Below, piece after piece: positions 1 to 51,611 of a stretch of DNA of 64,000 nucleotides. Position numbers and translations under genes: made by a program. Below the pieces are notes generated by a model that searched no databases, was not told the DNA's origin, and saw only the letters and a program-made list of their open reading frames with translations. Each line of letters begins with the position of its first letter. The first letter of the stretch is position 1. Origin of the DNA: Tricharina praecox (Eukaryota); contig NW_026250406.1 of the NCBI RefSeq assembly GCF_024521635.1, forward strand, positions 248,001-312,000, read 5' to 3'.

Positions 1-1173
1 TATTCTTCAATCAAGCAAGAAGTTAGTACTCAGTTCCAGAGGCTCGGACACATAGAGTGAGATCTAATTAGTTGCAGTGTCGGCCGATGGAATTCCACAG
101 CTATCGGTGGTAATGGGACCGTGTACAGCCGGCGGAGCCTACGTCCCCAGCATGTCGGACGAGTCCATCATCGTCGAGAACTCCGGCACCATTTTCCTCG
201 CTGGCCCACCGCTCGTGAAGGCGGCTACGGGAGAAGTGGTGACAGCGGAGGAGCTCGGAGGTGGAGCTCTGCATTCGAAAGTCAGTGGTGTGACGGATTA
301 TCTTGCAGTTGATGACGCACATGCTCTGGTATTGGCCAGGAGATGTGTTGCGAATTTGAACTGGCCAACGACATCGGTACCGGAAGTGGAGGTTAAGGAG
401 CCGCTTTATGATCCGAAGGAGTTGGTTGGTATCGTTGGCACGAATCTGAGGAAGCCCATTGAGATCAAGGAGGTCATTGCGAGGATTGTGGATGGGAGCG
501 AGTTCAGCGAGTTCAAAGAGAACTACGGGACTACTTTGGTCACTGGTACGGCTCCCATAACTTTATATGTGGGCAAAAAAGACTAACAAGCTCAGGCTTC
601 GCCCGCATTCACGGCTACCGTGTCGGAATTATCGGCAACAATGGCATCCTCTTCAGCGAAGCCAGTCTCAAAGGCGCACACTTCATCCAGCTCTGCGCCC
701 AACGCAATATTCCCCTCGTCTTCCTCCAAAACATTAGCGGGTTCATGGTCGGCAAAGACGCGGAAGCCGGCGGCATCGCTAAAAATGGCGCGAAGCTCGT
801 CAACGCCGTTTCCTGCGCCGATGTGCCAAAGTTCACCGTCGTGATTGGCGCTAGCTATGGTGCGGGTAACTACGGTATGTGTGGCCGTGCCTTCTCTCCA
901 CGGTTCTTGTGGATGTGGCCGAATGCGAAGATTGCCGTCATGGGCTCGGAGCAGCTCAGCTCGGTCATGAAGACAGTGGGGAAGAATGTGGATCCTCAAC
1001 TGCAAGGGCGCATCGAGAGTGAGAGCGAGGCCGTCTTCTCGTCTGCGAGGATCTGGGACGATGGTGTTATCCCACCGGAGGAGACGAGGAGTTATTTAGG
1101 GCTCGGATTGAGGGCGGCGTTGGGTGGGAGTGTTGAGACGAAGGAGACGAAGTTTGGCGTTTTTAGGATGTAA
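1..1173 (+). CDS. mccB: 3-methylcrotonyl-CoA carboxylase beta (carboxyltransferase) subunit, 5'-truncated by the window edge; exons <1-21, 78-545, 596-1173
   Basis: Spliced translation [31 protein letters not shown]...TTLVTG|FARIHG...[29 protein letters not shown]...FGVFRM*. GT-AG introns 22-77 and 546-595 with CTAAT/CTAAC branch sites. Confidence 0.95.
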
Positions 1174-9385: not shown

Positions 9386-11520
9386 TCATCCCACCACCAC
9401 CGCCGCCGGCCCACCCACTCTCTCCCCCTGCCTCTCCCTTTCCCTCTCCCCCTCCCTCCCCTCCCCTTCCTCCTCCCCGACCTCCTCCCAATACACCCCC
9501 GTCCTCACAAACAGACTACAAACCGCCGCGCCCGCAAACGCCGCCCCAAGGCATATAAACACCGTCTGCGGCACGGTAGCCACCGTTTTCGCATAGACGA
9601 GGTTAAACACGGTTGGGGTAACCACCCTCGCGAGCGAATGCAATAGTGCCAGCGCGCCCAGCAGCTGTCCGGTCTTATCGTCCGGCACGTGTTTGGTGAG
9701 CGACGACTGTATAGTCGGCGAGCCGACGCCGCCGAGGGCGACGGATACGCCTGCTAGAGTGAACAGCGCGCCGGTTGGAGCTACTGCGTAGCTGAAATAG
9801 CCTACGGCTTCGAAGAGGATGGCGAAGCGGATCAGGAAGATTTCGAGGGAGTCCGAGCCTCGGTGGTGTTGTGTGTTGCGCGAGCGCCGGTACCAGGTTA
9901 TTAGGAGCGGGAGGACGACGACGAGCATCGTTACGCGCACGGAGTTGACGATGGAGAGGTACATTGATGACTGCGGTGGTTAAGTGGTTAGATGCTGCGG
10001 ATGATATGGAGGGGGGGCGGGGGACGGGACACACCTCGAAGTTGCGCCAGCCGAACTGCCGCTCGGCGTACATGATGATGACGGTCATGGAGCCCATGCC
10101 GACGCCGAAGAGGGTGCACTCGATTGCGGCGAGGAAGAGGATGTTCAGGCGCAGGCGGGTGCTGGTCCCCGGTGCAGTGGGGAACAGGATCGACAGCGGC
10201 TCGAAGAGGTGCCGAGGATTGAACCAGTGCTTGCCGATGCCCGTGCCAGAGCCCGCGGACGTGGCGGTGTGCTTCGCTCGCGCTTCGAGGATGCGCCGCT
10301 GCGAGAGCGATTCCGGAAGGATGAATAGGGTGAACAGGATAGACGCTGTGTGCGCTACCTATTCTTTGTTTTAATAAACCATCGGGTCATAAGTCGGAGG
10401 TGGGGTGCTTACCACGGCAACGTAAAAGATACTCAGAATATTCCCCGTCCACTCGACCAACAGACCACCCAGCGCCGGGCCGACCGCAATACCAAGGAAC
10501 AGACATCCCTGGAACAGACCGAACGCCATTGCGCGTTGCCGCGGAGTCGTGCAATCGGTGCCATAGGTGTTTGCCAGAGCCAGCACCAGCAAGAAGCTGC
10601 CGCACAGCCCATCGATCGCGGCGCCGACGAGCAGGATGTTGACGTCAAAGTACTGCGGGTACTTGACGGCGAGGATCGTGGTTATCTCGCCGGCAACAAG
10701 GCCGAGTGAGGCGAGCGCCATCACTCCGCACCGACCGTAGCGGTCAGACAGTTGGCCGAGCCGCGGAGAGGTGAAGGCGCCTGGCAGTACCATCGATCAG
10801 TCCTTCTTCTTCTCATCATAGAGGCAAGAGATATATACCGAGCAGACCCGTAATCAAACCCAACACCAGAATGAAAGTTGATGTTCTCGCATGGACCTAT
10901 TCCCTCCGTATCAGCATCACTCATTTGTCCCCCCGGAAAGTAGCTTACCTCGGGAATCTGGCACATCTCATTATCAAACCCGCCGATAGTTGGCAGCACA
11001 GCCTGCGGCGCGCCGGGCGCCGAGTTCTGTTCGGAAAAGTACTGGCGACATATCAAGTCGAGGATGATGTTGAGGCGGGGCACCGCCACACTGTTCGCAC
11101 GCGCCACACACACACGAGTCAGTCTAGGTACATACAATAGTTGCTCTAACAAGCCGCTGATGTCATGACTCATGGCTGTGAGTGTGAGAGGTGAGGGTTC
11201 ACAGTACATACCCGCCGAACGCAATCGAGAACACACTAAATACCGGCAGGAGCCAGAAGATCTAGATGCGCACGCAATTTCTCAACATCCCGCTCGGAAA
11301 AACGAAGAGGAGGAGGAGGAGGAGGAGCAGGAGGAGGAGGTTTGTTTCATACGGATGGCGTCCGGTACCACGGATGGTGCTCCCAGTCCTTCAGATAATC
11401 ACTCCCACTTCCACTTCCACTTGCGCCCCCACTGTCATCTTCGACGACACCAAGCAGCGGCGCCGTCTCGTCGACAACCACATCTCGCGCTCGATCGGTA
11501 GCATTCGCTTCAGTTTCCAT
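9386..11520 (-). CDS. MFS transporter (tetracycline-efflux-like/SLC46-like family), multi-exon
   Basis: METEANATDRARDVVVDETAPLL...PWYRTPS|IFWLLPVFSVFSIAFGG. MFS motif A (GQLSDRYGR), GIAVGPALGG, and SSLTKHVPDDKTGQLLGALALLHSLARVV. Several GT-AG introns. Confidence 0.9.
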
Positions 11521-12502
11521 CTTTCGTGCGGAGAGTGGAGCGTCGGGTTTCTCGGCGCGTAGGGGGAGGGGGGGATGGGAAAGCGGATATGATATGTAAT
11601 GTACGGTATGTATGTACGGTATGTATGTGTGTAGTGTCTGACCGAGACTCCGAAGTGTGGAGGGGAGAGAGGAAGCTTACCTACCTAGAGCATTGGTACA
11701 ATAAGGCGCGTCTGTCGTCCGGGGTGTGGTTTCAACGGAGTTCTTTTACCAACTGATTGTAAATCCGATCGCAAACCCCGAGCGAGCGAGCGTACGAGCG
11801 AATTGCAAGTTAGATAGATAAATACACAACAAGTTTCGCGCGTGCGCGCGCCCTATCGTCGTTGATTTTTCATCGCGGCACGATTACGCCCTTGATTTTT
11901 AAGCTACCTTAACAATGCTCTAGCAGCCTGCAGAGAACGATATGATACCGGAGTTCCTGTGCCGAGGCTTTGGTCGCTGGGTTGGAACAACTTGGTGGAT
12001 CGGGGATAGACATGGAACATGGGATGCCCCGTGCAGCCGATCGGCTCCACAACGTTCAAGTTGAAAGGGGTGGACACCACTGGACATTGGAAACTGGACA
12101 ATGAAGGGTCACGTGGATGAGAACCAGCGCAGGAAACAGGTTGGGACTGTTGACTGTTGACTGTTGAATGCGATAGACATGCGGGAATGAGTCGAGTTCA
12201 CAGCAACAGGAACGGAGCATTGAATCTGTCCGGGCCGCTGTCATATGGTAGAGCGGAGTTCCAGTGTCCATATAGTAAATGCCACTGTCCAATGGGGGCG
12301 TAGGGGGTTTGGGTTTGGGTTCGACTGTTTGTGGCTCATGGAAGTAAGTTCCGGCGTCCGCCTCGAATCCCATAGCGTGCCTGATGCAGCAACTCTATTT
12401 TCAAAAGCCTGCCAGCGCATTGAATGATTATGTAAGCTGGAGGTTCAGGGAAGCCGTCAAGGAACCCGTCTGCCACCACCACAAGGGGAGCGATGTCACA
12501 TG

Positions 12503-12772
12503 TGTAGGATAGATAGGGGATCAGATAAGATACGAGAAGTGGCTAATCCGATCGGCAGCCCGAATGGTGGTGATAGCCAAACTAGCCAGATCGGGTGGCA
12601 CCAAGCTCTTCCAAGTTGAATAAAACCTCAACTTCCCCATCATCCTTCATTTTCGCCGTTTCCCTTCCCGGGCTATGTCACTCCGAAGTTGAATAGAACC
12701 TCAACTTCTCCATCATCCTTCCATTCACCGTTCGAACTTCCCTTTGCCGGGCTACGTAGATATCTACCTACA
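12503..12772 (+). mobile_element. Dispersed repeat, copy 1 (solo-LTR-like)
   Basis: Homologous in inverted orientation to 56958-57238. Bounded by TGTAGG...CCTACA, contains AATAAA and two (G)AAGTTGA-n8-TCAACTTC hairpins. No TSD seen. Confidence 0.55.
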
Positions 12773-13307
12773 TACCATAGGTACGAGGAGGAAGTCCGCC
12801 TGCAAGACTGCAACTGGATACCATGCCATACCCAGAGCCCCGTGACCACGAGACCAATAGCGGCAGTGACAGTGGCCGCGGGAATGGTTCAGATTTCTCC
12901 AAAGAACCTCTGAGCGGGAGAGAGGAGCGAGTGATAAGCTGTGGTGCGCGAGGGTACTGGTAGAAAGGTGATGGTTGATTCAAGGTTGTCGGGACTGAGA
13001 GTAGCGACACAGTCATATGAATCAATGTCGGAATCTGGAGGCGATTTATGTAAACGGCCTTGGAGTTACTTGTTAGTGGTACTGGTATCACGGCCGCTTC
13101 CAGACAGCCAAGGGAGCACAAGCGGACAGTTTTCTTTTCAGCCACTATCTCTAACTACAGCTGGACTCTTCGCCTAGGGTACAAGTACAAATTTATATCA
13201 TCAAAACACAAGCAAGATTAAAGACGCTACAACAACCACACCCAAACACCAATTATCACCTCCGAATCCCCTCCCTCCTTGATCTCCTCCCCCTCCCCTT
13301 TCCTGAA

Positions 13308-15308
13308 TCAAGGCCGAGCATCCTTCGCCTGCGGCAGCTTACACGGCAATTTCATCGTGCACCCCTGCGCCAGCTCACACTGCCAATTTTCGCTCCTAGT
13401 CTGGACGACTCTCTCAGCGCGCGCCTGCTCGCGCTCATGTGCCGACGCAAAGTTCCGGTTATCGGGCTTGTAGTGCGCACAGCCCAGGCCGCTGGGGTGG
13501 GGAGGCATTGAGGGGTTCCTCCTGAGGCGGAAGTACGAGAGCCAGCCTCTTCCGTTCGCTGCCGGGTCCGCTTCCTTCGCCTGCTCCTCGTAGTGTATCA
13601 CGCGGCGATGCACGCTGTGGTGGATCACCGCCGTGGCCGGGAGGACCCGAGGAGTACCGTACCTCGGGTTCTTCCAGAAGGATATCTTGAAGATTGATAG
13701 CAATTCTGTTTGTTTTTGTTAGTCTTGCCAAAGCGGGAGGTAGGAGGGGGGGGGGGGAGGGGGGGGGGGGGGGTCTGTACCGAAACACCTCCACAAAACA
13801 ACATCCATCCAGTTCCATCCCTGGTTAAACGTCAACGCATCGTGACATATACTTGCCTTGATAGCAGTATCTCTTTTGTTCTCGATCCTCTCGAGGAACG
13901 TGCCGACGCGGGAATTGAACTTGAGTTTTTCCTTATCCGCGTCCGGGAGGCTCTGGAGCTCGTGGATCATCCATTCCAGTGAGAGATCACTCAGCTGCAC
14001 GTCATGATCCTTCGTGTCTTCGGGGCACACAGATTTGTTGGCCAGGAGATTTGCGGCTTCGGGACACTCGGACTTCTTGGCCACGAGATTCGTAACGAAC
14101 GAGGGAATAAAGGATCTGCGGGCTTCTTTTTTCTTGTCGTTCATCGCTATGCTTTCGGCCGTGTTCGGCCAGCCACCGCCGACATCGCCATGGCCGCCAG
14201 AGAACCAGACTTCCTAAGACGAGTGAGTATGAAGTGATGAAGGAAGGAGGGATGGGGATGACGAACCTTGAGATCTTTGCTATCGTCGGGGTTGAATAAG
14301 GCGGGCCGGAACTTGATACGTCGTTCGTCGATGCTCACTGCGTGGCGAATATGTCTTACCGCCCCAAATTTGTCATCCTCCACCACCGGTTCGCCAGGAG
14401 TACCCATAGCTGGCGTAAGCGCAGGAGGATACTGCTTCCCTCGGAAAACACTACTCGGAATCAGCTCCCAAATCCAAGCCACCCAGAAAGCACGCATTCT
14501 GGCACCTACCCGACGGAATTGACCGTATCAAACAGCCCCAAAAAGTGAACATCCACCAGTGGCTGACAGAAGGTTCTGTTGAAACTGTTCATGTATTCCA
14601 GGCTTTCGGGCGAGGTCTTATTGCCGGTCTCGTAGTCCTGGTACGTGCGGTACGCAAACGAGACCATCTCCTGGTTGCCCTTGCTCAGCAGGCCGATCGC
14701 GGTGATCATCCGCGCCAGGAAGCGTGCGGTGAAAGCGCCCCGCGAGAAGCCGAAGATGTAGATTTTGGCTGGATGCGAGATTAGTTCTCCGTATGTCATC
14801 CGGGGACGGAGGGAACGAACCTCCCGGCTTGTAGTACTGCATCACGAACTTGTAGCCGGCGATGACGTGGTGATCGAACGTCGTTCTAGAGTCATTCGTC
14901 AGCTAGAATATAGGAAACCCATCGTGTCGATGGTACGTACCCAACGCCCTGGTCGACCTTCTGGCTAACCCATCTCTTGATGCTCCCGAAAAGCCTCACG
15001 TTGAGCGAGCCCTCGCCGGCGGAATAGGTTCCGATGCCCGCTAGAATCACACACACACATCAGTCCGGCCCATTTCCATCCCGACCGGTAGAGAGGGAGA
15101 GAGACGCACGCTGGTAGTAGTGATACTGGCTCTTCTCGGAGCGGTCAAACATCTGGTACAGATCGACGATGTTGGTGTCGCTGCTGTCACCGCTGAACTT
15201 GTTGCCCGTCCCGTCGAAGCAGAGGACAATGCGGCGGGGGGGCTTTGGTTCCCTCAGCATTCCGGCCCCGGTGCCGTTCGTGCAGGGCGTGGGGGTAGAG
15301 GGGGACAT
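13308..15308 (-). CDS. DUF2235 / Tle1-like alpha/beta-hydrolase (putative phospholipase), paralog 1, multi-exon
   Basis: [30 protein letters not shown] (GxSxG), [42 protein letters not shown]. Confidence 0.9.
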
Positions 15309-18300
15309 GGCGCTTCGGGGGTAGATCGATGCTGGAGAAAGAAGGTATCGTCCAACCGAACGGGAGATGATGTACCGGGAGAGAATTTTCGGAATGGATG
15401 GCGGTAGCCTGAGGAGAGGAGGGCAGGATGGAGATATCGATCAGGCAGAAGGGTGAGCACTGAGGACGAAGGCATGATTATATATAGCTGTCAATGAGCA
15501 AAAGGAACGTGTATATGCGATGCAATACGGTGGATACCGGTGTGGCAGTGGTGGTGATGGTGGATAGGAGGAATTGAGAGATGGCTCAGCTCAGGTGTCT
15601 CCCTGAGTCTGTCCAATTCTGGCCCGCTGCATTGGTCAATCGGCCAAGTATGCAGACCGCCGACTTCAGTAATGTCGTCTCGGTACGGCTTCCGCCTCCA
15701 TGGTCTCTTGCCCTCAAAAGTATCCACTCACAGGGCTGCTCCAGGAAGGCGGTTAGCTCGTACGACTGGACTGACGATCTCCCGTCAAATCTGCAGCCCT
15801 GAGGGGCGACGGACTCCAGGCGGTGAGATAGGAGTTGATCCTGTCAAGCCCTGTGAGTGATGACCCCTGCGTCGTACATACTTGCCAAACGGAAGGATGG
15901 ATATGGCAGATGTCCAGGGACACACGTGTGGATGGATATAGCAGATGTCCAGGGACACACGTGTGGATGGCCATATGTATCAGCAGAAAGACCTCGTGCT
16001 CGGAAGTGGCCATGCTAACCGGGAATCCTCAGCCCGGGATTCTGTCTTTGGGGAAACACCCATCATGTAGACTACCTACCATTCGAGTTGGAAACGAACA
16101 CGTGAGGGTGCTGGTTCTAATCTCCACAGTTTCCATCTGCATCCCCAAGAAAGGGTTTGCCCCACTGCCTCAGTACACCCTGGTTCTTCCTACTACCGAG
16201 CAGCCATATCCGAGTGCCCGTCAATCCGTCTCCAGTGTGCCGACTCCTTTATGGGTTTACTAGTATTGTACACTGTAGTAGCGATGATGTACGAGTATCA
16301 TACTCTGGGCTCTATGTATGTAGAAGACTAGAAGACAGAACGTGGCAGTGAAAATATCTAGGATTTCGCTGCCGTCGGGACTCAGCCGCAGATACAAATT
16401 ACAATCTACACACGGTAGATACGGTATTGATGTTCAAGAGTCAACACTCGCTTCTCGGTTCCATTGAGGTTAGATCTTACTGCAGAGTAACTGCTAGTTG
16501 ATTAGTACGGCAGAGTCCACCCTGCTTCAGCTGGAACTTTAGCGAGGGCACATGCGGAGAACGACAATCCCTACAGTTATGCAGGGTACTCATCGCCGGG
16601 GATAGCTTTCAGCTGAGTTCTGATGATTTTACATATCATCTGCTGAAGACCTTGAGCTTCGGAAGGCACGGTGGTAACCAGCCTGTGCTCCTCTCCACGT
16701 CCCCGGGCGGCAGAGGCCGGTGTTGGAGTGGCAACACACCGGAGCTGGCATCCGACGGTGGCACGTAGGTAAAGTGGTTTTTTTTACCAGCGAGCCGGCC
16801 GGCAGGCCGCCTTTCATCCCGGCCATGGGCAAGAGTCAAGTCAAGATATGTGGCGCCGCCACGGCGCCAGCCCCCGTGCCGAGAGCGACCAAAAAACCTC
16901 CAGCTGAGTTTTCCTCGCGAAAACCCACCAATGGATTATGGATATCGATAAGGGCTTGTAGGCAAGTCCGTGTCACCATGTAGGCATTCGTGTGGAGACT
17001 GGAATAGGTAGTCACCTCACGCTGCTCTTCCTGAGGCTGCCGTCGCTGCAAATGAGGTATGTAGGTCTCGCTTCCGGCCGGGCCGTGTCGGTTGTGAATT
17101 CTTGGATGCACACTGCCAATCGTGGGCTTGTGAAGGGGGTTCTATGTAGCTTCTGCGGTCGGCCTCTAGGCTTCGACACCTGGCATAATATTTACTCTAT
17201 GTAGAGGACACGGCTCGAACCTGCAGATCATGCCCGTCACTCGGTTGGGGTAGAGGAGGTGCCTAATTTGCACGTGTTACCAAGCAGAATTACTGTCGTG
17301 CCCTCTGCCTACCTATCGTAAGCGCCTCCAGTAGTAGCGGAGGCTTTTGCCATCCGAGCTGCGAGCTGGCAGCTGAAGGCTGAAGGCGTAAGACTTTTAA
17401 CACAGTGGTTGGGAGCTTGCTGGATCTGGATCTGGCACAGATTCTTGGGGTCTCACCTGTCTACTAGAGTACCTACTAGTAGGTAGGTAGAGTACTCTAT
17501 ACTCTGCATAAGAGATATATATCCACGGCTCCTCGCGGTCACGGGCATCATGTATCTCCTACCTGTAGTAAAATGCAGGTGTAGTGACAGCTCAATCTCT
17601 CGCCATCTAGTGCTCATCCCCATCCCGTCTAACCCCCACATCCCCATCTCAGCTGCTAATGGCACGCACGCACTCAGTGAGCGGCCGTGCGCGGGGAGAC
17701 ACGCGGCCACTGGCCAGACGGATAAGGACTCGGGAGGTGAATAGGAATATGCATGTAGGAGCCAACCAAGATGGATGGGACGGGGCAGGCCGGCCGAGCC
17801 CGACGAGCGGCATGGAGAACCCGGCCTGATTTATTTTCGGTGGCGTATGATACCAAGAAGGTACTCTAGAATAGGGATTGCTAGGAATTGTTACAACTTT
17901 CTCAGTTTCGCTCTGCTGTCGAGAATGCAGCCGTGGACGTGGACGTTTCTCGCTCGGCCGAGCGGTCGTGAATCTATGTACCGTTGGCTGTGCTGGTGAG
18001 GGTGCCGGTGCTGTATTATGAACCAACTTCCAAGGCTAACTACAGCTCTCGCCAGGACGGGTTCTTCCCTGCACCCCGAAGCCGCTCCTCGGCCAAACTC
18101 TAAAGTCCTCCCTGAAAGGAAAAGAAAAAGGAATTCACCGGAAAAGAAAACATCCACTTTACCAGCACCTGGCCATTCCACCTGGGCATTCCATACCTGC
18201 CACATTCTTGTACGCGACGTCCTTTCTATTTGAGTGAGGACGTGGTTAGGTAATACTTACTTGCATACCTCCTGATGCACATTGCACACTCGGTTAGCCA

Positions 18301-18665
18301 TAACGTCAGCCACCCCCATCCGATTCTGTTATCGGTGGTGGCAGTGAGAGTACAAAGGGGTGCCGAGATGGGGGCGGGAAGGGCGCGGGAAGGGCGAGCA
18401 GAAGGGCGAGCAGAAGGGTACACAGAAATCCAAGGTTACTCCCACGGTCAAGGAAAACGAAGGGAAATGCGGGACTCCAACCAGAGACATTAGAGTATCG
18501 AATTGGAATAAAAGTTGCGGTCAGACTCATACAGTAGCATGGGTAAAAGTACGGATTGATATCGCAGAAACACAAGCAAAATTAGGTAGATGGAAGGCAT
18601 AAATAACAACCACATCCGACAAACTCCCAGACAGACCATCTCCTCTTGAATCCTTCTCCTCTCCC

Positions 18666-20344
18666 TCACGAGCCACCATTCTCCACCGACGCCTGATTGA
18701 GTGCCTCCGCGAAGCCCAGATTCTTCGGGTTGTAGGTGGCATTGGTTTTGACGCGATGAAGGACGCTGGGGTGAAGCGTCGCCGTGGATGGGAGGTCCCT
18801 CGTCGAGCCAAGGTTCGGAAGCCAGTACCTCGACACCCATTCTCCGCCCTCGAGTTCGAGGCGCTTGAAGACCGGGAGTGTTTCTAGCTCCATCAGTCCT
18901 ATGATACTATAGGGTAGGAGAATACGAGGGAAACATACCAAAGATCCACCAAAAAACAACCTGCAACCAGTTCCACCCCTTCCTGAACGACAACGCATCG
19001 TGACACATACTCTCTCTAATAGCAATCTCTCTTTTGTCCTCGACATTCTCCAGGAACTCGTCGACGCGGGAGTTGAACATGATCTTTTCCTCTGGCGGAT
19101 CCGGAAGGCTCTGGATCTCGTGGACCATCCACTCTAGTGCGATATCACTCAGCTGCACGTCTTTCTCGTGCTGTGCCTCCCAACCACCGCCGACGTTGCC
19201 GTGGTTGCCACAGAACCAGACTTCCTGCGACGAGTGAGTATATGTACACAAAAAAAGAGAGGTGGGTGGGTGACCTTGATGTCTTGGGGCTTGGTGCTCT
19301 CCGCGATAGTCAGTTCGTCGTCGTGACAGAACAAAGCGGGCCGGAACTTGAGACGTCGTTCGTCGATGCTGACTGCGTGGCGGATGTGTGTAGCCGGCGG
19401 CGCATAGACGGGAAGATACGTCTTCCGGCTGAACGGCAGTTCCAAAAACCTACGCAACATCATCATCAGTTCGACCGTAAGCCACCCGAAAGTATTGCAA
19501 CCCACCCGACAGAATTGACCGTGTCAAACAGCCCCAAGAAGTGAATCTCCACGTTCAACCGACAGAAGGTATCCTTGAAGTTATTCATGAATCGCCTGCA
19601 GTCGTCCAGGGACTTGAAGTTTCCGCCGCCAGTCTCGTAGTCCTGGTACGTGCGGTACGCAAACGGGACCATCTCCTCGTTACCCTTGCTCAGCAGGCCG
19701 ATCTCGGTTATCAACCGCGCCAGGAAGCGCGCGGTAAAGGCGCCTCGGGAGAAGCCGAAGATGTAGATCTTGTCTGGACGCGAGATTAGATCTGAGGAGC
19801 TACCAATGGTGGTGCATGAGGGAACAACCTCCCGGCTTGTAGTATCGCATCACGAACTTGTAGCCGGCAATGACATGGTGATCGAATGTCGTTCTATCAT
19901 TCGTTAGCCAGAAATCACGAAAACATCCCTTCACGGAGTCGATGGCACGTATGTATCATACCCAACGCCCTGGTCAACCACCTGGCTAACCCATCTCATG
20001 ATACTTCCCAAAAACCCCTGATTGAGCGAGCCCTCACTAGCCGAGTAGGTCCCAATGCCCGCTGGACGCATCCCACGTTAGCCTCACCATTCCCACATCA
20101 ACCGCGAGCGGGAGGGGAGGGGGAGAAGCGCACGCTGGTAATAATGAAACTGCCCCTTTGCGGTGCGATCACACATTTGGTACAGCTTCACGATGTTCGT
20201 GTCGCTACTGGTGCCGGAGAACTTGTTGCCCGTCCCGTCGAAGCAGAGCACTAGACGGTTGGGTGCCTTGTCTTTGTCTTTCTTCTTTTTGCCATTCTTG
20301 TCGTTCTTGCCGGGCTCGGGGTAGGCGGGGTCGGAGGTGGACAT
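18666..20344 (-). CDS. DUF2235 / Tle1-like alpha/beta-hydrolase (putative phospholipase), paralog 2, multi-exon
   Basis: [55 protein letters not shown]. Intron positions match paralog 1. Confidence 0.9.
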
Positions 20345-22077
20345 GATGCTGCTGGGGCAGATGGATGCTGGAGAGCGGGACTACGTAGTTCACTCGTATG
20401 GGGACAATGGAGGGGGAATTTGAGAAGCGGAAAACAGCCCGAGGGGAGTCGGGGCCAGGAAGGAGATATCCGTCAAGGAGAAGGACGAGAACGAAGCCAT
20501 AAAGTAGATGTAGTTATCGGAAAGGACGTGTACAGTGTATGACGGGCGTGGGACCGATGGTGATGGTGGGTAGAGCGCATTGAGTGTTGGCTCAGCGCTG
20601 TTGTCTCGAGAAGTTCGTCCGACTCTGGCCCGCTGCGTGGACTGCCTAGTTCGGCGGAGCTGGATCTTTGGGGACAATGCAACAGTGACGGTGACACTGG
20701 CTACGAATATCCGAAAGAGAGGAGATCTCCGCGGCCCGTCAGTCCTACTCCAGCCTGTGGGTTTACTCTGGTAGGTCATTTTCTGCTGATTAGTACAGGT
20801 AACTGCAAGGTCACGATAATCGATTGCAGAACTAATCCTTCGCACAACAGCTACACAAGCACAGCATACGGATAACACCAAAGCACATGTCTACTCCAGT
20901 CTCCGCTTCCATCCACCGGCCGCGTAAGATGTAACGGTCCTCCACCGGCCCTGGCCATGCGTAACCTCGATTCTCAGCAGAGTTTCTCCGCCCAGCCGGC
21001 TTGACGGATGACCGCCATCATCGGCATCCCGCAGCAACTCATCTCCCTTCCCAATCAGAGCTTATCCCCCCCCCTTCCCTCGAAATCCTGCGGACTTCCG
21101 GACATTCAGAAGACACAGACGATTATGTGCGGGCTATGATGCGGGTGCACGCATTAATTGTCATTCGCAACAGTTGAATGAATGACGATGGCAACCGCGG
21201 AGCTCCTCGATGAGAGAGCCGAGGTATTTCGACTGCGAAATCAAGTGGTGTCGGCAATTCCATATTTACACTTTCCAGCTCCGAGCAACGACAGATCACG
21301 GATTCCGTGTGCGAGCTGAATCGATCTTGGCCAACACAGCCTGCCGTTGTACTAATGGACTATATCCTGTGCTTTAGCAAACAGCGGACTCGGAAGACAT
21401 TACGGAGCGTAAGAGCTGAGAGGGTTTGAATTAGAGGATGCGGAGAATCATGGGATTCGATCAACCGAGAAAAACGCTTAAATCCCTGAATTTGCGGAGG
21501 AAATGGACGGAGGACAGACTCGATTGGGACGGTTGTAGAGATCGATGGACCGCAAATCCTGGGTGGCATATATTCGATTCGTCTTGGGGGTTGTCTTGAG
21601 AATGGAGGTCAGCATAGTACAATGATAGTAACTTTGAAATCGAGGAGAACCATAACAATGAATGGCGGGGTTTTCGTGATAGGTTGCGAGACCGGTGGCT
21701 ACTCGGGAGACATGTCTTGGAAACGGATCCTACCAGACGCAGTAATAGGACGTCTTCAGCAGATGGATATGGCCAGTTGCACTGCACGCTGGCCTAGAAC
21801 CTCCCATTGCAGTCCATACAGAACTTCAATGAGAAGTTTCGCCGACAGGTTACAGAAGATACCGAGACAGAGTACGAAACTGCCGGAAAATAGCCTCTCA
21901 ACATCGCCCCTTGACTTCTGTGCTCCTTCAGCCAAAGATTTCTCGTACAGGAGATCATGGAAAAAGCTCACGGACAGCATATAAACCTCAGTCTTCCCCA
22001 GGAACGACGGCCAGCCTCTCTACCTTTCCTCTTTACCTCTCTTCCTTCCTTCCAGCCCCATACGTTCCATCACGATC

Positions 22078-25000
22078 ATGAGTCCCTTAGCTAAGAATCC
22101 TATCGCAAACCTTCTCGGCAAGGGCGGCCCCAGCCTCTCGCAGTACGGCGACGACTCTCTTGCGACGAAAGAGGCGGTCAAGTCCGGGATCCTCGCCGAC
22201 TTCGCCGGGATGGGGAAGGATATTCCCAAGGATGCGCTGGTCATCATTGAAGCTTTGGCGGCCGCCATCAAGAAGGAGCCGATTGATGATAGGGAGCTTA
22301 TGGTCAGTAGAATTGCCTCCGGATCATTGGTGTAGATTCTAGGTGCTGATACCTAGTGCAGATGGAGAAACTCATCGGACTGGTTTCACACATGCCCCGG
22401 TCATCGGAGAATCGAACCCTCATCACTGGGGGGTTGGTCGGACAGCTGTTCGACTCGCTCCAGCATCCGCCATTGACTTACGTGGGCGAGAAATTCCAAT
22501 ACCGTGATCCCGATGGGAGGTACAATGTAAGTTCTCTACCACCGGATTGTAATGCAACTGATAGCTGAGTGATATTACTCAGAACATAATGTCTCCCGAT
22601 CTCGGCATGGCCGGAGCTCCGTACGCACGCACTATCCGTGGAGAGAAGATGATGACTGGCGCGAAGCCAGATCCCGGGCTTCTATTTGATCGTCAGTATC
22701 CCTCCAGTTTAGTTTGGCCTTCGCTGAAACGCAGAAGTCCTGATGGCGCGCGGTAATAACACCAAAGAGAACCCGGCCGGCCTCTCCAGCATGCTGTTCT
22801 ACCACGCCAGTATCATCATCCACGACATCTTCCGAACCAACAGACAGGATCCAAACATCAGTGACACCAGTTCATATCTGGACCTATCGCCACTCTACGG
22901 CAAGAACCGTGAAGAGCAGTTGGCGATCAGGACGATGAGTGATGGCCGGATCAAGCCGGACACGTTCGCGGAGAAGAGACTTCTCGGCCTTCCTCCGGGA
23001 AACTGTGTGATGCTGGTTATGTACAGTCGGTTCCACAATCATGTGGGTTCACTCGTAGAAAACGTTTCATGGGGGATCGATATCTGACGGGCTTTGCAGG
23101 TGGTGGAGAAACTGGCGGCCATCAACGAAGGTGGTCGATTCTCCCTTGACCGCCGAATGTCCCCCGAGGCAGCGGCAGCAAATAGGGATGAAGACTTGTT
23201 CCAGACCGGTCGCCTTGTGACTTGCGGACTCTACATCAGCATCAGTCTTCACGAGTGAGTATCCCAGTTGATCGAATCATGATCACGCCCTAACCCACTG
23301 CAGCTACATCCGGGCTATCGGCAATCTTCCGCACTCATCGAGCGACTGGACGCTCGACCCGCGCATGGAGGTTGGCCCCTCGGTCTTCGACAAGGATGGC
23401 ACTCCTCGCGGCATCGGCAGCCAAGTCTCGGTAGAGTTCAACCTGCTGTACCGCTTCCACTCCGGCGTCTCGAAGCGAGATGAGAAATGGACCGAAGAGT
23501 TCTACCGCCAGCTGTTCCCCGTCACGGATCCCAAGCACGTCTCGCTCCCGCAGCTGCTAGAGGGCCTAGCGATATTCGAAAAGTCCACTTCGGATACGCC
23601 TGTCCACGAGCGGTGTTTTGGAGGGCTCAAGAGGCAGGAGGATGGCTCGTTCAATGATGCGGACCTAGTCAAGATTCTGAAGGAGAGCATTGGTTAGTAC
23701 ATACGCCCATCAATATTTGGCTGAGGGTGGGCTGACACGGCCGTAGAGGATCCGGCGGGTGCGTTCGGTGCAAATAACGTACCCGACATCTTGAGGCACG
23801 TGGAGATTCTCGGAATCAAGCAAGCCAGAAAGTGGCAGGTTGCTTCGTTGAACGAGTTCAGGAAGTTCTTTGGCTTGAAGGAGCACAAGACTTTTGAGGA
23901 CATCAACCCGGATCCTTATGTTGCTGATACACTGTGAGTCTTTTTCGCAAGTGGAATACTCATAGATGATTCTGACGGAGGTGTAGGAGGAAACTCTACG
24001 ATCATCCTGACCTGGTGGAGATGTACCCCGGAATGTTCCTCGAGGAATGCAAACCTCGAATGGATCCGGGGATGGGACTATGTTGGTACCCTGTCTGGGG
24101 CGTTTTGAGAGTCTCTGGAGATTAACCATGACCCCACAGGTGGCCCCTACACGGTCACTCGGGCTGTCTTCAGCGACGCCGTCTCGCTCGTTCGTGGCGA
24201 CCGTTTTTATACACTGGTATGTACCTCTTACAACTGCGATCACAGTCCATCACTGACCTTGTACAGGACTACACCGCGCAGAACTTGACCAGCTGGGGCA
24301 TATCCGAAGTGGCACCGGACTTTGAGTGCATGAGCGGTGCGAAGATGTCGATGCTGATCCTGAACGCCTTCCCCAAGTGGTTCAAGTACAACTCGGTGTA
24401 TGTGGTGCAGCCGTTCTTCACGCCAGCGGAGAACAAGATCATCTTCACCAAGTACAAGGAGATGGACAAGTATTGCTTTGATCCGCCAACGCTGCACAAG
24501 AATCCTATCCCAATGCTCTCTCACGCCGCCGTCAAAGCGGTGCTGAAGGATTCCATCAACTTCCAAGTGCCGTGGGGTACGGCGATGGGCTACCTGATGG
24601 AGGGCAGCTTCATGCTGGGGTACGATGGCGAGAAGAGTGTGCAGCAGCACCGTGACGTGGCGAAGGCTCTGTTTTCTCTCCCGGATTACCAGACCAAGTT
24701 CAAGTCGCACACCGAGAATCTGATCATCAAGTTGCTCAATCGCGAGAGCTACACGCTAGGACGGGACCCTGAGTATTACCAGGTCGACGTCGTGCGCGAG
24801 TATGCACCCCATCCTTCTCTATAGCGATGTCATTGATGCTGATTTGCCGAATAGTATCGGAAATTTGACAGCGATGTACTTTGCGTCATCGCTCTTCTGC
24901 CTCCCGCTCAAGTCCGACGACAACCCGCACGGCTGCTTCAACGAGCGCGAGCTATTCAAGACTATGTCCGACGCCAATATCTACATCTTCTTCGATCACG

Positions 25001-26041
25001 ATCCGACCAAGACGTGGGCTCGCCGGCGCCGCGCCAAAGCCGGAATCGACGCACTCGCGAAGAAGATGTTGCCTACCATCGAGCAGCTGCACAACGTCCC
25101 GGGATTGGGACTAATCCACGGCGTCAAGAACACCCTCGAGGCGGCCCTCCACCCGGCCAAGAGCTCCCTAGCGGAGTACGGTAAGACGTTTGTCAAGTCG
25201 TTGTTCAAGCAGGGGAATTCGCCGAAGGAGGTGACCTGGATCTTGATCTGTCTCTCCTTGGCCTTTGTGGCCAATTCCGCTCAGGCTGTAAGCCCTTGCT
25301 CCCCTGCGTCCATCCATCCAGTCGGTGGCTAACCGCCCCATACCACCAGTTCGCTCAAATCGTCGACTTCTACCTCGACGACAAAAACGCCGAGCACCTA
25401 ATCGAGATCCAAAAGCTCGCGGCGAAGGGCGATGCCCAGTCCGAAGACAAGCTGATGCGGTACGCGCTCGAAGCCAACCGTCTCACCAACACCACGGGGC
25501 TGTTCCGCAACGTCGTCGGCAAGACGACCGTGACCGACGGCACCCGCACGCACAACGTCAATCCCGGCGACGAGGTCTTCTGCAGCTTCGTAGCCGCCGG
25601 CTGCGATCCCGCCGTTTTCCCCGATCCGTAAGCCCCTCCCCCCGCTTCGCAACCCCACCACTAACACCCAGCAGCATGACCGTCAAACTCAACCGTCCCC
25701 TCGACAGCTACATCCAGTGGGGCGACGGCCCGCACCAGTGCCTGGGCCGCACCGTGAACATGATCCAGGACATGTGCCTCCTCAAGGTCCTGGGCAAGCT
25801 CAAGAACTTCCGCCGCACGCCTGGCGACGAGGGCGTGCTGAAGTTCATTCCTAAGACCGGCGGGATAAAGCTGTATCTCACGCCCGACTGGAGCGATTTC
25901 GGGGCTTATCCTACTAGTACCGTCCCCTTCCCATGTTTTGTGTGGTGTGTGAAAGTGTGAGTGGTGGCTGATCGCCGACGTGTGCACACAGCCATGAGAG
26001 TCCAGTTCGATGGCCCCCTACCGTCGCCCACAAGCACGTGA
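22078..26041 (+). CDS. ppo: Psi-producing oxygenase-type fatty-acid dioxygenase (heme peroxidase) fused to a cytochrome P450 domain, multi-exon
   Basis: LQHPPLTY, distal-His motif IIIHDIFRT, SSYLDLSPLYG, EFNLLYRFH (catalytic Tyr and proximal His), SDAVSLVRGDRF. P450 part has ANSAQ, EANR (ExxR) and WGDGPHQCLG (heme Cys). Last exon ends MRVQFDGPLPSPTST*. Confidence 0.95.
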
Positions 26042-27457: not shown

Positions 27458-27860
27458 CTACATACAAAAAACCACTCCGGCTCGGGGATCTCCAACCGCC
27501 AAACCTCTATTATTTTCAAAGTCTTCAAGGCGTTGGATGACATACTCAATATTTGCGTCCTCCTCGGATAGATGTTGTAGTGAATCGGTGACGGAACTAA
27601 AGATGTCCGGAACCGTGGAGAAGATGTGACCGATGAGGTGCTGATCTGTGATCTGCTCGGTAGTACCTTGTAGAGGCTTGCGGTGCCTAAGGAGACGAGC
27701 GCAGTAGTCGGAAATCTTTTCATTGATGCCGGGTCTGAGATTGTGGAAGGTTCGCACGAGCTGGAGACGGGTAGCCTTGGATGCCGAATTGTCGTATTGT
27801 CGCCTAAGAACTGTGGATCCTGCCGAAATTTGGCAAGTTCTTAGGCGGTAATATGACAAT
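27458..27860 (-). pseudogene. Ty1/copia LTR-retrotransposon gag fragment
   Basis: LRRQYDNSASKATRLQLVRTFHNLRPGINEKISDYCARLLRHRKPLQGTTEQITDQHLIGHIFSTVPDIFSSVTDSL resembles the Retrotran_gag_2 (UBN2-type) pattern. No pol nearby. Confidence 0.7.
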
Positions 27861-29340
27861 CCGGCATCCAAGGCTGCCCGTCTCCAGCTCGTGCGAACAT
27901 TCTGTCTAGTATGTCTAGCTGCCAGCAAGGTGGAGAAGTGGGGCAGACAGATACGTGACTACGTTGGCGATTTATGTATCATACTACCGATAGTATATAG
28001 TAGGTAGTAAACACAACGATACCTCATCCCAACTCTCTAATCAGTATCTCTAGTCAGCGCTCTAGCGACGACGGATGCGTGACACGTGCTGCTCCGGGGT
28101 GGATGCGGTGTTCTATACACATCACAGCCACCTCCATCCCCATCTCCAAGTAGACTTAGTTAGGAATGGCTCGCACAAAGCATGATAGACTCATAATAGG
28201 ATGAGATTGTTCTACTCTATGGAAGGTTCGCTTTTGCATCCTGCACTCTGATAGATGTAGTTTCTTTTGCCTCCTCCGAGCGGTTGCGGTCGCAGTCGGA
28301 TGCTACTTGAAACTTGCATACACTGCGCATCTAATATGATGTAGGTGCCTCAAGCCACGATTCCTCACTCGCATCGAGAACGGAGGTGAAAGCTAGGTAC
28401 GCGTGGTGTGAACTTACCGGTTTTATAAAAGTGATCGCAACCTCGCAAGCTGTATGTCGTACGTACAGCCCCACCCGAACGAGAACGGGAATGAGAATGT
28501 CTCCGACTGGGTCTCATCATTCATGAAGTCCGAGTCCGAGTCCGAGTGAGAAGGAGAGTGAGAGATCAATGCACTCCATTATCGCAAACCTACGGCCTAG
28601 CTACTCCAGACTACACACGGCGATCACTTTCAGCTCTACGTAGGTTGCTACGCCACATGTAATCGGAGTCCGAGTTCGAGTTCCCTAGTTCCCGAGTTCC
28701 TGAGTTCCTGAGTGAGCCACTATGATCTCACCCACCGACCAAGCGGCGAGCGAGTGCTCTCCCATGGCTACCAGGATGTCGTACCGGACACTAGCCGTAC
28801 CCACGCTAGCCTCGATAATACCACTCTAGCGCAACCACCGCAAGCGGCCGCCTCATTCCTCCCTCCCTCTCTCTCTGTCCCTCTCTCGCCCACCGCCCAG
28901 CCCAGCCTCGCCCCCTCCCCCCCCGCCCCGCCGTCCGTGCACGGGTGTCGCCACCACTACCACCACCACCAGCACCACCACCAGCACCACCAGCACCACC
29001 AGCACCAACTCCATCCGGCGTCGGCATGGCATGGTCGGCGGCAACAGGAGTCAGCCCGAAACCTGCAGCCCAACCAGCCGACACGGTATGTACCTGAGCA
29101 TATGCATAACTATGTGCGTGCGACGTCGCTGTTGGACTCTGAACTCTGGAGTCGCGATGGATACATATCATACCTCCTGCTGCTGTTGCTGCTGCTGTGT
29201 ATTGTACTCTACGCGCGAGCATACATACGGTACATAAACCAACCCTTCTTCACTCCTCCCCCCCCCCCCCGACTCTGCGTCATGATCCGCCGTCCTCCTT
29301 CGCCGGCACGCACGAATCACGATCGGAGTGGTCGGCGGTA

Positions 29341-33427: not shown

Positions 33428-34959
33428 TGGAACGGGCAACCAACATTCCGCGCACACGGTCCTCGTCCCTCTCGAAATCAACTTCACATAGCCACGGCCA
33501 GAACCATGAACGAAAAAAGACGGCGAGGAGGATGGAGGAGTGCACTGCGACGGGTTCGAGAACGGGAAGGGGACGGGGGCGGAGATCGGGTCTCAGTGCT
33601 GGGTTGGTCTTGTTGTCGGCCGTGCTCGCGCTTTCGAACTTGATCGTACCCGCTACGGCGCGGACCATCGCCTACTGCTCCAGTGTGAATACTGGTAGCG
33701 ATTACGATTCGGGTTTGTGCCTCTCCGGAGATGTTGCTGCGCCACGGGTGTACTGATGCTGTGCACAGTGATCAGTGAGTTCCAGAGTCATGGTCTCTGC
33801 TACGACAACTGCAACACGGGCACCTATGCCTTTGCGATCGTCCAAGGCTCGTATTGCTGGTGCTCGAACTACGTTCCGGGAACCGACGAGTCGGTGTCCG
33901 ATTGCAGTCAGGATTGTCCCGGATATCCCGACGACAAGTGCGGCGACACCCAGGCGAACCTGTACGGATATATGACCCTTTCGAATAAACCTTCAGGAAC
34001 CAAGGGCGCCGAAACCACGGTGAGCACTACTTCCACGATCCCCAAGACTACGAGCCCCACGATCCCCAAGACTTCCACTATTATTCAAGTTGGACCTATT
34101 ACGACCCTTTTTATCGTACGGCTTCTCCCATCCTGCATCTGTTGATATGCGTTGGAAGAGTGCCTCCGATCTCTTTTCTCGCATCTTCTTTTGGGTTATC
34201 GGCCCTGTCATCCCCCATCGGTTTGCTGACATGGTTGGTGTAGACGACATCCGCGACGACCACGAAGACGGCGACGACCTCCACGACACAGGCTAGCACC
34301 CTGACGACCAAAACAACATCAAGCAAGACGACATCAACATCGGCATCCGGTGTCACGGTGACTGTCGGCGGCACCACCATCGTATCGACGCCAACCGCGA
34401 GCCCAACCCCCAACGACAGCACTTCGAGCAAAGACTCCAACTTCTTCTCGAACGCTGGTCGGGCTGCCGGATTGATTATCGGAATCATCCTTGCGCTCGC
34501 CTTCATCGTTGGCGGGGTACTCTTCTGGCGACGCCGGCGACAACAGCAACACGCCGAGCTGTACGGCGGCCCCGGTTCACCTGCAGGGGGCATTCCGCCG
34601 GGAGGAGCAGGAGTGTTTGGTGGAATCGGTGCTAAGACGAGAACGCGGTCGATGAGCACGCTCGGGTTGGTGGGAGAAAAGGGAATGCACTCGCCCACGG
34701 GCGCGGCTACCACGGCATCCCCTGCTACGGCTGGAGAGACAACGCCCGGGACGGTGTACGATCAACGTTTGGATCCTAGTTCGCTCTTCATGAGATTCGA
34801 TCACCAGACGGGCAGTTCTCGGATGAGTGTTCGGAGTTTGCGCGACGACACGGACTATACACGCCGCGTTTTACGGGTGACTAATCCTTCGCTGTCCATT
34901 CTGCGTCCGAAACAATAGCTGACATTTTTTTCTAGCTCGCAAATCCCGACGATTCATAG
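33428..34959 (+). CDS. wsc: WSC-domain cell-wall integrity sensor (Wsc1/Slg1-like); start uncertain (in-frame ATGs at 33196, 33282, 33428, 33532)
   Basis: Signal-like LVLLSAVLALSNLIVPATA, Cys-rich WSC domain (YCSS...FQSHGLCYDNC...YCWCSNY...CSQDCPGYPDDKCG), Ser/Thr-rich spacer, TM helix followed by WRRRR, cytoplasmic DQRLDP and SLRDDTDYTRRVLR|LANPDDS*. Confidence 0.9.
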
Positions 34960-35233
34960 ACGTATGCTGGAAGTGGTACCTATCGCATGTGTCCCGACTT
35001 TCTTGTAACAATAATAGGGCCGATCTTTTTTTTTCTTTCGGTTTTTTTTCTTCTCTTTTTCTCTTCTTCTTTCCATTTCATACGGTTTGGAGAGTGTGGG
35101 AGAGGGGGAGGAAAGGCGGGGGTTCTTTTGTTCTCTTTCCTTCACACTTTTTTTTGTCCTTTGTTGTGCACAGCGATCATCAAGTACAGTACATTACCTA
35201 CACTACACTACACTACGAAGGGGCTACATGGTA

Positions 35234-35236
<3 letters not shown>

Positions 35237-35269
<33 letters not shown>
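35237..35269 (+). repeat. (CA)n microsatellite in the low-complexity 3' flank of wsc
   Basis: Direct inspection. Confidence 0.9.
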
Positions 35270-35273
<4 letters not shown>

Positions 35274-49808: not shown

Positions 49809-50402
49809 TTACAACTTGTGTGCAAGGTGAACCACCTTGTAGTCGACGGCGAGCTCCTTGCCGGCATCGGCAACGACGAGGACACGGACGGATCCGGAAC
49901 CACGTCCGAAGGCCTCCTTCAGGCGTCCCCAGAGGTGGCCCTGGTCGACGACCTTGAGTCCCTGCTTGATCTCGCCGGTCTCGGTCATGGCAACGAGCTT
50001 ACCGTCATCGCGGATGTCGATGAGACGGTACTGCTTGAAGACGGGGCCGAGAAGCGAGTGCAGGACGACGGAAGGCGAAGGGTGCGAGACGACACAAGGC
50101 TCCTCGTGAAGCTGCTTGGTGAAGAGATCAACACCGAGGTAACGATGCTGGCCGGTCTGGGCAGAGGTGGTGATGCGGATGATCTGACAAGGCCTGTGCT
50201 GGAGGATCACCAAGTCACCGATGCGGATGTGGTGACAAGGGATGGTGAAGGTGGTGGCCTTGGGCTGGTGCACGGACGAGATGGGGCCGGCAGGCTTGTA
50301 GGAAGGGTACTCCTTTGTCTTGTAGGCGACATCCGAGACCGAGGCACGGTCATCGTAGCTGTTGGCCTGGTTGTCGTAGTCGTAGTTGTCGTACTTGCCC
50401 AT
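49809..50402 (-). CDS. hex-1: Woronin body major protein HEX-1 (AUG-initiated short form, 197 aa); frame open upstream to about 51692
   Basis: MGKYD...TIPCHHIRIGDLVILQHRPCQIIRITTSAQTGQHRYLGVDLFTKQLHEE...GPVFKQYR...MTETGEIKQGL...GSVRVLVV...ELAVDYKVVH (eIF5A-like HEX-1 core). Confidence 0.96.
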   Translation of the reverse strand: MGKYDNYDYDNQANSYDDRASVSDVAYKTKEYPSYKPAGPISSVHQPKATTFTIPCHHIRIGDLVILQHRPCQIIRITTSAQTGQHRYLGVDLFTKQLHEEPCVVSHPSPSVVLHSLLGPVFKQYRLIDIRDDGKLVAMTETGEIKQGLKVVDQGHLWGRLKEAFGRGSGSVRVLVVADAGKELAVDYKVVHLAHKL

Positions 50403-51611
50403 GGTGTCGGTGGTAACTGAAGAAGTGTCTGAAAGGGAGTGGTCTGAGTCTGAGACGACGGAGCGAGTGGCTGTCTTTAAGGACTTGACAGAAGACTTGG
50501 GTCTGATGACAGGGATAACGGTGTGGTGGGTTTCCTTGATGACCTTGGTCTCGGAAACGACGGTGGCTGAAGTAGGGGGGGCGGGAAGGGCCTTGATAGA
50601 GTAGGTCTTGTCGGAATAGGACTTGTCGGAAAGGGACTTGTCGGAATAGGACTTGCCGGAGTAGGACTCGTCCGAGTAGGAGGTGGTTGACTTGTCGGAG
50701 GTGGAAGGGTAGATGGGTTCAACGACACGGGGACGTTGAATGGTGGTGGTGGATACCGAAGAGGACTGGGGTTGGTAGACGGTAGTGTGAGCGGCGGCGG
50801 TGTTCCGGTGGGAGTGATCAAGTTCCGAAGAGGAAGATGAGTGATGCGAGTGATGGGTTGAGTGAGCGGCCTGGTGGTTGTTGTTGTTGTGGTTGTGAGT
50901 GAGGTGAGGGAGGTGGGGGAGGTGCTGCTTTATGGATGAGATCACTGAGTGGGGACCCCGGTGATGTTGGTGGCGCAGGTGGCCGGCCGCTAAGTGGTGC
51001 TTACGCGATTTGGTCTTGTCCGAGGACGAGGATGAGGAGGACGAGGAGGAGGACGAGGAGGACGACGAGGATGAGGAGGACGAGGATGAATCTCCTTCCC
51101 GGTAAACCTTCTTGGTGATCAGGACGTCTACGTGCGAGGTAGGCGCGTGCTGCTGAGGGTGGCGGTGGGGGAGGTGAGGGCGGTGGATGTGCTTCAACGG
51201 ATTGAGCGAGTGATGCTGGTGCTGCTGGTGCTGGTGCTGCTGGTGCTGCTGGTGCTGCTGGTGCTGGTGAACCTGCTGGTGCTGGACAAGCTGCTGCTGG
51301 TGCTGGAGATGCTGGTGCTGGAGCTGGTGCTGCTGGTGCTGGAGATGTTGATGCTGCTGATGCTGCTGGTGACCGAGGTCGGCCTGGTGGGCGGTAGTGG
51401 TATGGGTTACGTGTTCTTCCGTGATTTGGAGATGGTTCTGATTTCCGTGACCTTCCTGCTCTTGCTCGTACAGCGAGGAGGAGGAGGAAGACGCGGGCTT
51501 GTGGTGAACCTCAGAGATTGTCTCCTCGTGTATGGATGTAATGCCTTCCTGGCGACTGTATGACGAGGGGAAGACACTTAGGGGGATCGGGACTCGGGCT
51601 TCGAAGTCCAG
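50403..51611 (-). CDS. hex-1: Putative CUG-initiated N-terminal extension of HEX-1 (His/Gln/Ser-rich; 600-aa long isoform)
   Basis: In frame with no stops. Begins aatCTGg = (L/M)DFEARVPIPLSVFPSSY. No minus-strand ATG in any frame from 50403 to 52194. Confidence 0.65.

Follow-up and report, generated by a model that had tools for sequence, protein, structure and literature searches.

What does a DUF2235 hydrolase gene do beside a gene for a fatty-acid oxygenase? The question is raised by a stretch of 64,000 nucleotides from Tricharina praecox (NW_026250406.1, positions 248,001 to 312,000; hereafter the window, on our contig C39), fungal DNA with short introns from a genome of 38.4 Mb, where a DUF2235 gene and ppo, coding for a fatty-acid dioxygenase fused to a P450, diverge from a common intergenic region. 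An initial annotation had proposed an oxylipin module made of two DUF2235 lipases, the Ppo enzyme and a transporter of the MFS family. Part of this stood, as the DUF2235-ppo pair is conserved and has duplicated together, whereas the exporter and the second lipase (a local copy) dropped out. After decades of work on the Ppo enzymes, the supplier of their free fatty acid is named nowhere in the open literature that we have searched, and the conserved pair ties together two gaps, the fatty-acid supply for Ppo and the role of the fungal DUF2235 proteins. The reading that we favor, and consider rather probable, is that of an ancient two-gene oxylipin unit in which an intracellular hydrolase would free the fatty acid for a divergent, co-regulated dioxygenase-P450.

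The DUF2235-ppo pair and its conservation

Gene models were obtained by joining exons by their window coordinates, with splicing predicted from the sequence. All four predicted genes gave uninterrupted, fully spliced frames with canonical GT-AG introns throughout, and the genes named in the initial annotation are thus real and intact. The conserved partner of ppo is DUF2235 paralog 2 (20344-18666, minus strand), with 440 amino acids (aa), 7 exons, 6 introns and PF09994 detected on the exons, while ppo itself (22078-26041, plus strand) codes for 1082 aa in 14 exons separated by 13 introns. The two start codons lie head-to-head 1,733 bp apart, in agreement with the earlier figure of about 1.7 kb, and the divergent intergenic region (20345..22077) is a candidate shared promoter region. 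The host genome contains at least four DUF2235 genes at no fewer than three loci and at least two ppo genes. The probability of an opposite-strand ppo start falling by chance within 5 kb upstream of a DUF2235 gene is about 1-3 in 10,000, and the adjacency in the window is far beyond chance.

A metagenome scan for the hydrolase confirmed 350 loci, from which we have analyzed the best 80, ranked by likeness to one hydrolase subfamily (58 clusters when grouped at 90% identity). A locus was considered informative if its upstream sequence reached 3.5 kb or more; 36 qualified and 44 were too short. A head-to-head ppo was found in 32 of the 36 (19 of 23 non-redundant clusters), and a ppo linked in any orientation in 20 of the 23 clusters. 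With other upstream minima the head-to-head arrangement appeared in 38 of 44 loci (2.5 kb) and 23 of 26 loci (9 kb), and the gap between the aligned parts of the genes was 0.8-4.9 kb, with a median of 1.8 kb (24 clusters). The best named hits of the ppo partners, labels taken from a set of about 120 reference proteins rather than identifications, belong to Pezizomycetes, Lecanoromycetes, Sordariomycetes, Dothideomycetes, Leotiomycetes and Eurotiomycetes. By locus, they were to Pezizomycetes (L077-79 and the Tuber-like L091-96), lichens (L034), Fusarium (L055 and L070), Periconia (L066), Leptodontidium (L104 and L109) and Ascosphaera (L090). L068 (10052-20152) is a variant with ppo downstream on the same strand.

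The order of protein accessions, which carries no orientation, was compared in the 12 assemblies where both proteins were seen. DUF2235 and ppo accessions were consecutive or near-consecutive in eight of them: consecutive in Trichophaea hybrida, Wilcoxina mikolae, Kuettlingeria erythrocarpa, Xanthocarpia ochracea, X. lactea, Caloplaca aetnensis and Squamulea squamosa, and two apart in Teloschistes peruensis. They were not adjacent in two Pyronema species, in Sphaerosporella brunnea (of which its ppo of the YxW side, defined below, alone was seen) and in Circinaria calcarea (contigs of 6-16 kb). The adjacency does therefore recur across Pezizomycotina, by locus structure as well as by accession, and the DUF2235-ppo link is strongly conserved across distantly related filamentous fungi.

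Co-duplication of hydrolases and oxygenases

By motif, the oxygenase partners can be divided into a YxW class (10R-dioxygenase-like) and a YxF class (9-dioxygenase-like). In an oxygenase tree of 52 rows (FastTree) the W types were separated from the F types at a support of 100, and the linked YxW partners carry YRWH and GVGI(A/C)P..ISRA, as do the 10R-dioxygenase (10R-DOX) rows in the tables of Oliw (2026; PMC13049297). The hydrolase tree (IQ-TREE quick search, 73 rows, one per cluster, with fragments below 230 aa left out and the metagenomic rows partial) has one branch, 1.07 changes per site long and with an SH-aLRT of 100, that sets off 26 rows. On the 26-row side nine of nine hydrolases have a YxW partner and on the other side 21 of 21 have a YxF partner, a match that the Fisher test overstates since the rows are related by descent. 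The splits of hydrolases and oxygenases match, and the pair was therefore duplicated together, as a unit, before the Pezizomycetes and the other fungal classes diverged.

Hydrolases of both sides coexist in the host genome, the F-type one in the window and a W-clade one on contig C28 (at about 425000-427100). The YxW-type ppo lies on contig C43 (at about 99400-102800), and these two genes are probably a second pair that has since split. At locus L100 a W-type DUF2235 gene is head-to-head with a divergent YHWH-type oxygenase, only 34-38% identical to all the references, that makes a third partner class. No PpoA-like partner, i.e., of the 8R-linoleate diol synthase (8R-LDS) type, appeared among the linked loci, which were sampled from the hydrolase side only. 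The P450 of the partners is also diverse: the thiolate Cys is kept in some of them and no Cys motif was found in L058, L059, P0259 and P0275, the hydrolase being paired with both kinds.

Several observations weigh against an ancient unit. The 80 loci were picked, out of 350, by their likeness to a single subfamily, and among the 36 informative ones three lack a ppo and in one the ppo is found downstream, in the same orientation. Others would suit ordinary microsynteny, or chance neighborhood. A single lichen family supplies six of the eight accession-based cases, and the link has been lost in the two Pyronema species, where neither of the ppo contigs seen carries the DUF2235 orthologue, and in the second pair of the host, whose members are on separate contigs and partnerless within about 20 kb. 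However, when the pair was masked and 25 non-redundant loci were compared, just seven of the 300 locus pairs had any other flanking open reading frame (ORF) in common. The sole flank common to the window (33699-35642, plus strand) and its near relative L077 (19302-20403) is a WSC-domain gene, which lies on opposite sides of the pair in the two loci, the two paired genes having been inverted together relative to it. Besides, the pair persists in both of the ancient paralogous classes, and with the third, YHWH-type oxygenase as well. Microsynteny or chance is thus largely refuted as the explanation, and we grant it very little probability.

The two enzymes and the possible function of the pair

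Both DUF2235 proteins keep, in the spliced models, the triad motifs that had been recognized initially: GFSRG (S134 in paralog 2, S130 in paralog 1), FDTV (D209, D202) and GxHG (H281, H277). Among the homologues showing each motif, the triad Ser is invariant in 197 of 197 and the Asp in 199 of 199. The exons of both paralogs exceed the curated cut-off of PF09994, and the orthologues P0001 and P0106 score 315 and 287 bits. Paralog 2 is 75% identical to P0001 of Trichophaea and paralog 1 is 95% identical to P0106 (labelled Tricharina praecox), counting gaps from different splice choices; the nearest named proteins of both are from Pyronemataceae (Pezizomycetes). Neither a signal peptide nor a membrane span was detected by hydropathy in either hydrolase, and both have amphipathic helices close to the N-terminal lid. 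The top five Foldseek matches of the predicted structure of P0001 (pLDDT 64, pTM 0.72) were all Tle1-family structures (E 2e-7 to 1e-4, TM-scores 0.26-0.36), and the triad motifs align with the Tle1 structure 4O5P. From this model, the hydrolase is predicted to have a Tle1-like alpha/beta-hydrolase fold. A search of the ESM Atlas returned bacterial PF09994 clusters only.

One detail was overlooked in the initial annotation. The usual residue two positions past the catalytic His is Asp (GxHxDxGG), kept in paralog 1 and in 195 of the 198 homologues showing the motif (214 sequences examined), and paralog 2 has Asn283 instead (GNHGNVGG). The codon (at about 19195-19200) differs by a single base, and either a true substitution or an error of sequencing may account for it.

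The dioxygenase half of the window ppo has H196, Y322, Y370-R-F-H373, R551 and F554, that is, a haem peroxidase domain with distal H196, catalytic Tyr Y370 and proximal H373, fused to a P450 half with N888 in VANSAQ and the thiolate C1008 in GDGPHQC. The protein is 78% identical to P0121 over 719 aa, and its orthologue P0263 in Wilcoxina has PF03098 and PF00067. By these predicted features it belongs to the fungal DOX-CYP fusions (Ppo/LDS family). We have used Tables 2 and 3 of Oliw (2026; PMC13049297) as a reference for the motifs. The 9-DOX signature of Table 2 is present (YRFH, entrance Arg551, Phe554 and the terminal motif GMGLCGPYTVTRAVFSDAV), which suggests oxygenation most likely at C9. 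In the P450, HQC and an Asn-type substrate recognition site 4 (SRS4), VANSAQ, are as in the LDS and epoxy alcohol synthase (EAS) enzymes of Table 3 and not as in 9-allene oxide synthase (9-AOS). The HEC pocket and the SRS4 (T/V)Px(G/T) without Asn that characterize the 9-DOX-AOS fusions are therefore absent, and so is the YxW of 8R-LDS (PpoA) and 10R-DOX (PpoC), the YRFH-bearing enzyme falling outside the W clade (support 100). A 9-DOX site together with an Asn-type P450 is found in none of the rows of Tables 2 and 3. The Wilcoxina P0263 and L079 have this combination too, and we flag this Pezizomycete oxygenase for its unusual set of domains.

Its closest characterized counterparts are instructive. 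The 9R-DOX-AOS of Aspergillus terreus (ATEG_02036, Q0CW98) and the 9S-DOX-AOS of Fusarium oxysporum are on the same F side of the tree, and the window enzyme resembles 9R-DOX in YxF, the entrance Arg and a Phe at the position of F627 (PMC13049297, Table 2). In contrast, HQC and VANSAQ replace the HEC and (T/V)PxG/T of 9-AOS (Table 3), and the 52-row tree places the window enzyme not with the Aspergillus and Fusarium 9-DOX-AOS but in a separate Pezizomycete clade of 11 rows. This clade also contains a Tuber cluster with GSTUM_00006891001, the truffle TmelPpo2, a candidate for 1-octen-3-ol (PMC3470932). Relatives of the 9-DOX-AOS enzymes have a DUF2235 neighbor too (L090, L055, L070). As for PpoC (10R-DOX) and 10R-DOX-EAS, their motifs are those of the W class of the pair, to which the window enzyme does not belong, and the YxW-type ppo of the host, on C43, has no DUF2235 neighbor.

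Taking the pair as a feeding unit, the DUF2235 protein would act inside the cell as a Ser-Asp-His lipid acyl hydrolase, freeing an unsaturated C18 fatty acid (linoleate) from membrane or storage lipid. Ppo, probably controlled from the shared upstream region, would convert the free acid into a hydroperoxide, most likely the C9 one here, and its P450 domain would rearrange it. We infer in this way the lipase activity, the substrate, the upstream action, the co-regulation and the C9 specificity of the pair; action upstream on a shared substrate is suggested because the hydrolase is paired with oxygenases that differ in predicted position and in P450 thiolate motif. The animal PLA2-COX and the plant DAD1-type lipase-LOX systems likewise use a lipid acyl hydrolase to supply a dioxygenase with its fatty acid. 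The pathway logic would be the same, although the lipase family of the fungal pair is unrelated, and we know of no case in which the PLA2-COX or DAD1-LOX genes are conserved genomic neighbors.

Both enzyme families and the logic of a lipase followed by an oxygenase are already known. In the open full-text literature (subscription papers being outside the search) we have found no description of the DUF2235-ppo pair or of a function for a fungal DUF2235 protein; in the accessible parts of PMC7824268, PMC10269595 and PMC3744438 such genes are mentioned merely in passing. Hydrolysis of membrane lipids upon cell disruption has been suggested as the source of free fatty acid for fungal DOX, with no lipase named in the text available (PMC9579011), and a review on fungal G protein-coupled receptors refers to the action of secreted lipases on lipids of the host (PMC7907439). 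None of the terms "lipase," "phospholipase," "hydrolase" or "cluster" occurs in the accessible text of the 2026 review (PMC13049297). Its lasting linkage to ppo makes the lipase-like gene a candidate, open to experiment, for the release of the fatty acid from which fungal lipid signals are made, and the pair leads to a prediction of the hydrolase that would serve each oxygenase class.

The correspondence between hydrolase clade and oxygenase class would, on the other hand, also fit a product-specific action downstream of the oxygenase. The hydrolase would then transfer, esterify, lactonise or release the oxygenated fatty acid, for example by cleaving oxylipins from lipids or amino-acid conjugates, or by building estolides. 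Ser hydrolases can work as acyltransferases, and the hydrolase clades follow the oxygenase classes along a long branch, as product specificity predicts. Some fungal 9- and 8-DOX do accept amino-acid conjugates of linoleate (PMC13049297). However, co-duplication alone explains the tree pattern, and partners with and without the P450 thiolate motif, and with varied predicted positions of oxygenation, leave no single common product for such an enzyme to act upon. We regard this downstream role as unlikely, although worth keeping in mind.

The head-to-head order itself, seen in 38 of the 39 ppo-bearing loci whose upstream sequence reaches 2.5 kb or more, could reflect joint regulation (by wounding, host contact or development) of two enzymes working in parallel, for instance in membrane remodelling or defence, neither feeding the other. 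Along these lines, the induced set of the Terfezia claveryi mycorrhiza includes four DUF2235 genes and one DOX-P450 among 751 genes, counted here irrespective of their positions in the genome (PMC7898904, Table S7). Both families handle fatty acids, however, so that a common pathway is simpler, and a purely regulatory link finds no support in any common motif. No shared promoter motif was detected in 25 intergenic regions, the best 6-mer (z of about 3.1 among 2,080) not being significant. In the same regions the FarA site was not enriched (10 seen versus 11.8 expected). We find joint regulation without feeding improbable. The missing motifs count as well against the co-regulation assumed in the feeding unit. 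Furthermore, the hydrolase copy adjacent to ppo is the one with Asn at an almost invariant Asp.

As a tentative extension of the feeding unit, plausible but one on which we would not yet rely, the pair might be a dedicated and hitherto unrecognized trigger of the oxylipin burst, in which a domesticated relative of Tle1 has been paired with the dioxygenase since before the split of 9-DOX and 10R-DOX, each class having its own lipase. It might gate signals of the PpoC and PpoD types and possibly the C8 aroma volatiles (truffles keep the pair). The Pezizomycete pair could make an undescribed C9 oxylipin by means of a 9-dioxygenase and an Asn-type P450, similar to an epoxy-alcohol or diol synthase.

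Bacterial relatives and flanking genes

The hydrolases share PF09994 with the Tle1 effectors of the bacterial type VI secretion system (PDB 4O5P, 9J3F, 6SJL), of which the Tle1 of enteroaggregative Escherichia coli has been described as a phospholipase (PMC10433429). The GxSRG, FDTV and GxH motifs are aligned and these effectors give the top Foldseek matches, but the fungal genes are eukaryotic and intron-bearing, and code for proteins of about 440 aa without signal peptide and with 18-22% identity. The secretion-system context is missing as well, with no VgrG or immunity neighbor among the window ORFs scanned. We have examined the 31 nearest bacterial DUF2235 loci (30 from GTDB plus L111; 27-39% over long matches) and none had a COX-like or other oxygenase neighbor by tblastn, nor was any fatty-acid oxygenase found among 44 neighboring ORFs of bacterial DUF2235 loci. 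Inheritance of a ready-made bacterial operon is therefore unsupported, and we have rejected this origin. PF03098 was present in one of five of those bacterial genomes. A neighboring gene of 686 aa that had been suspected to be a lipoxygenase turned out to be RACo. Two of six plasmid COX-like genes were inspected and had no DUF2235 neighbor; in a Paracoccus plasmid (L143, 2319-6795) genes for a RoxA-like cytochrome, a catalase-family protein and a COX-like peroxidase are found in a row, without DUF2235.

DUF2235 paralog 1 (15308-13308, minus strand; 545 aa, 7 exons, 6 introns) has a 49-aa insert and a longer C-terminus. It is identical to paralog 2 at 269 of 411 aligned residues, with six shared intron sites in the same phases and a dN/dS between them of about 0.36. 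Because both paralogs fall within one Pyronemataceae clade and the end branch of paralog 1 is the longer (0.67 versus 0.19), paralog 1 is a recent local tandem copy, accessory to the pair and outside the conserved unit. A second copy was found in just one of the 80 metagenomic loci (L072, where a divergent DUF2235 gene lies downstream, 9983-16907), and the two-lipase arrangement is thus local only. Between the two hydrolase genes of the window there is a 35-bp unit in 2.2 copies with 97% match (15895-15970).

The MFS gene (11520-9386, minus strand; 564 aa, 7 exons, MFS_1 on the exons) is intact, shows 10 hydrophobic peaks by hydropathy and shares its strand with paralog 1, 1.8 kb away, as might be expected if the four genes formed a cluster with the transporter as oxylipin exporter. 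Yet none of the 80 loci had an MFS homologue at an E-value of 0.01 or less, with at least 5 kb covered on that side in 28 loci (20 clusters), including the three closest Pyronemataceae loci, and at least 8 kb in 25. We have judged the MFS gene to be a bystander outside the conserved unit, and find the four-gene cluster hardly credible. The conserved unit is one of two genes because the other flanks are not shared, the MFS gene is absent elsewhere and a second DUF2235 is nearly so.

On the other side of the pair, a Copia-type gag fragment (27461-27958, minus strand) lies 1.4 kb 3' of ppo and may mark a local inversion breakpoint. Farther away, a 627-aa frame (49812-51692, minus strand) is repetitive in its N-terminal part, has eIF5A-like domains at the C-terminus and resembles the Woronin-body protein Hex1. 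Close to the opposite end there is a carboxyl-transferase gene (463-1170, plus strand), next to ORFs that resemble a biotin carboxylase and an acyl-CoA dehydrogenase and lie immediately before the window (compare L031, 4726-7947), a neighborhood similar to the known leucine-catabolism cluster.

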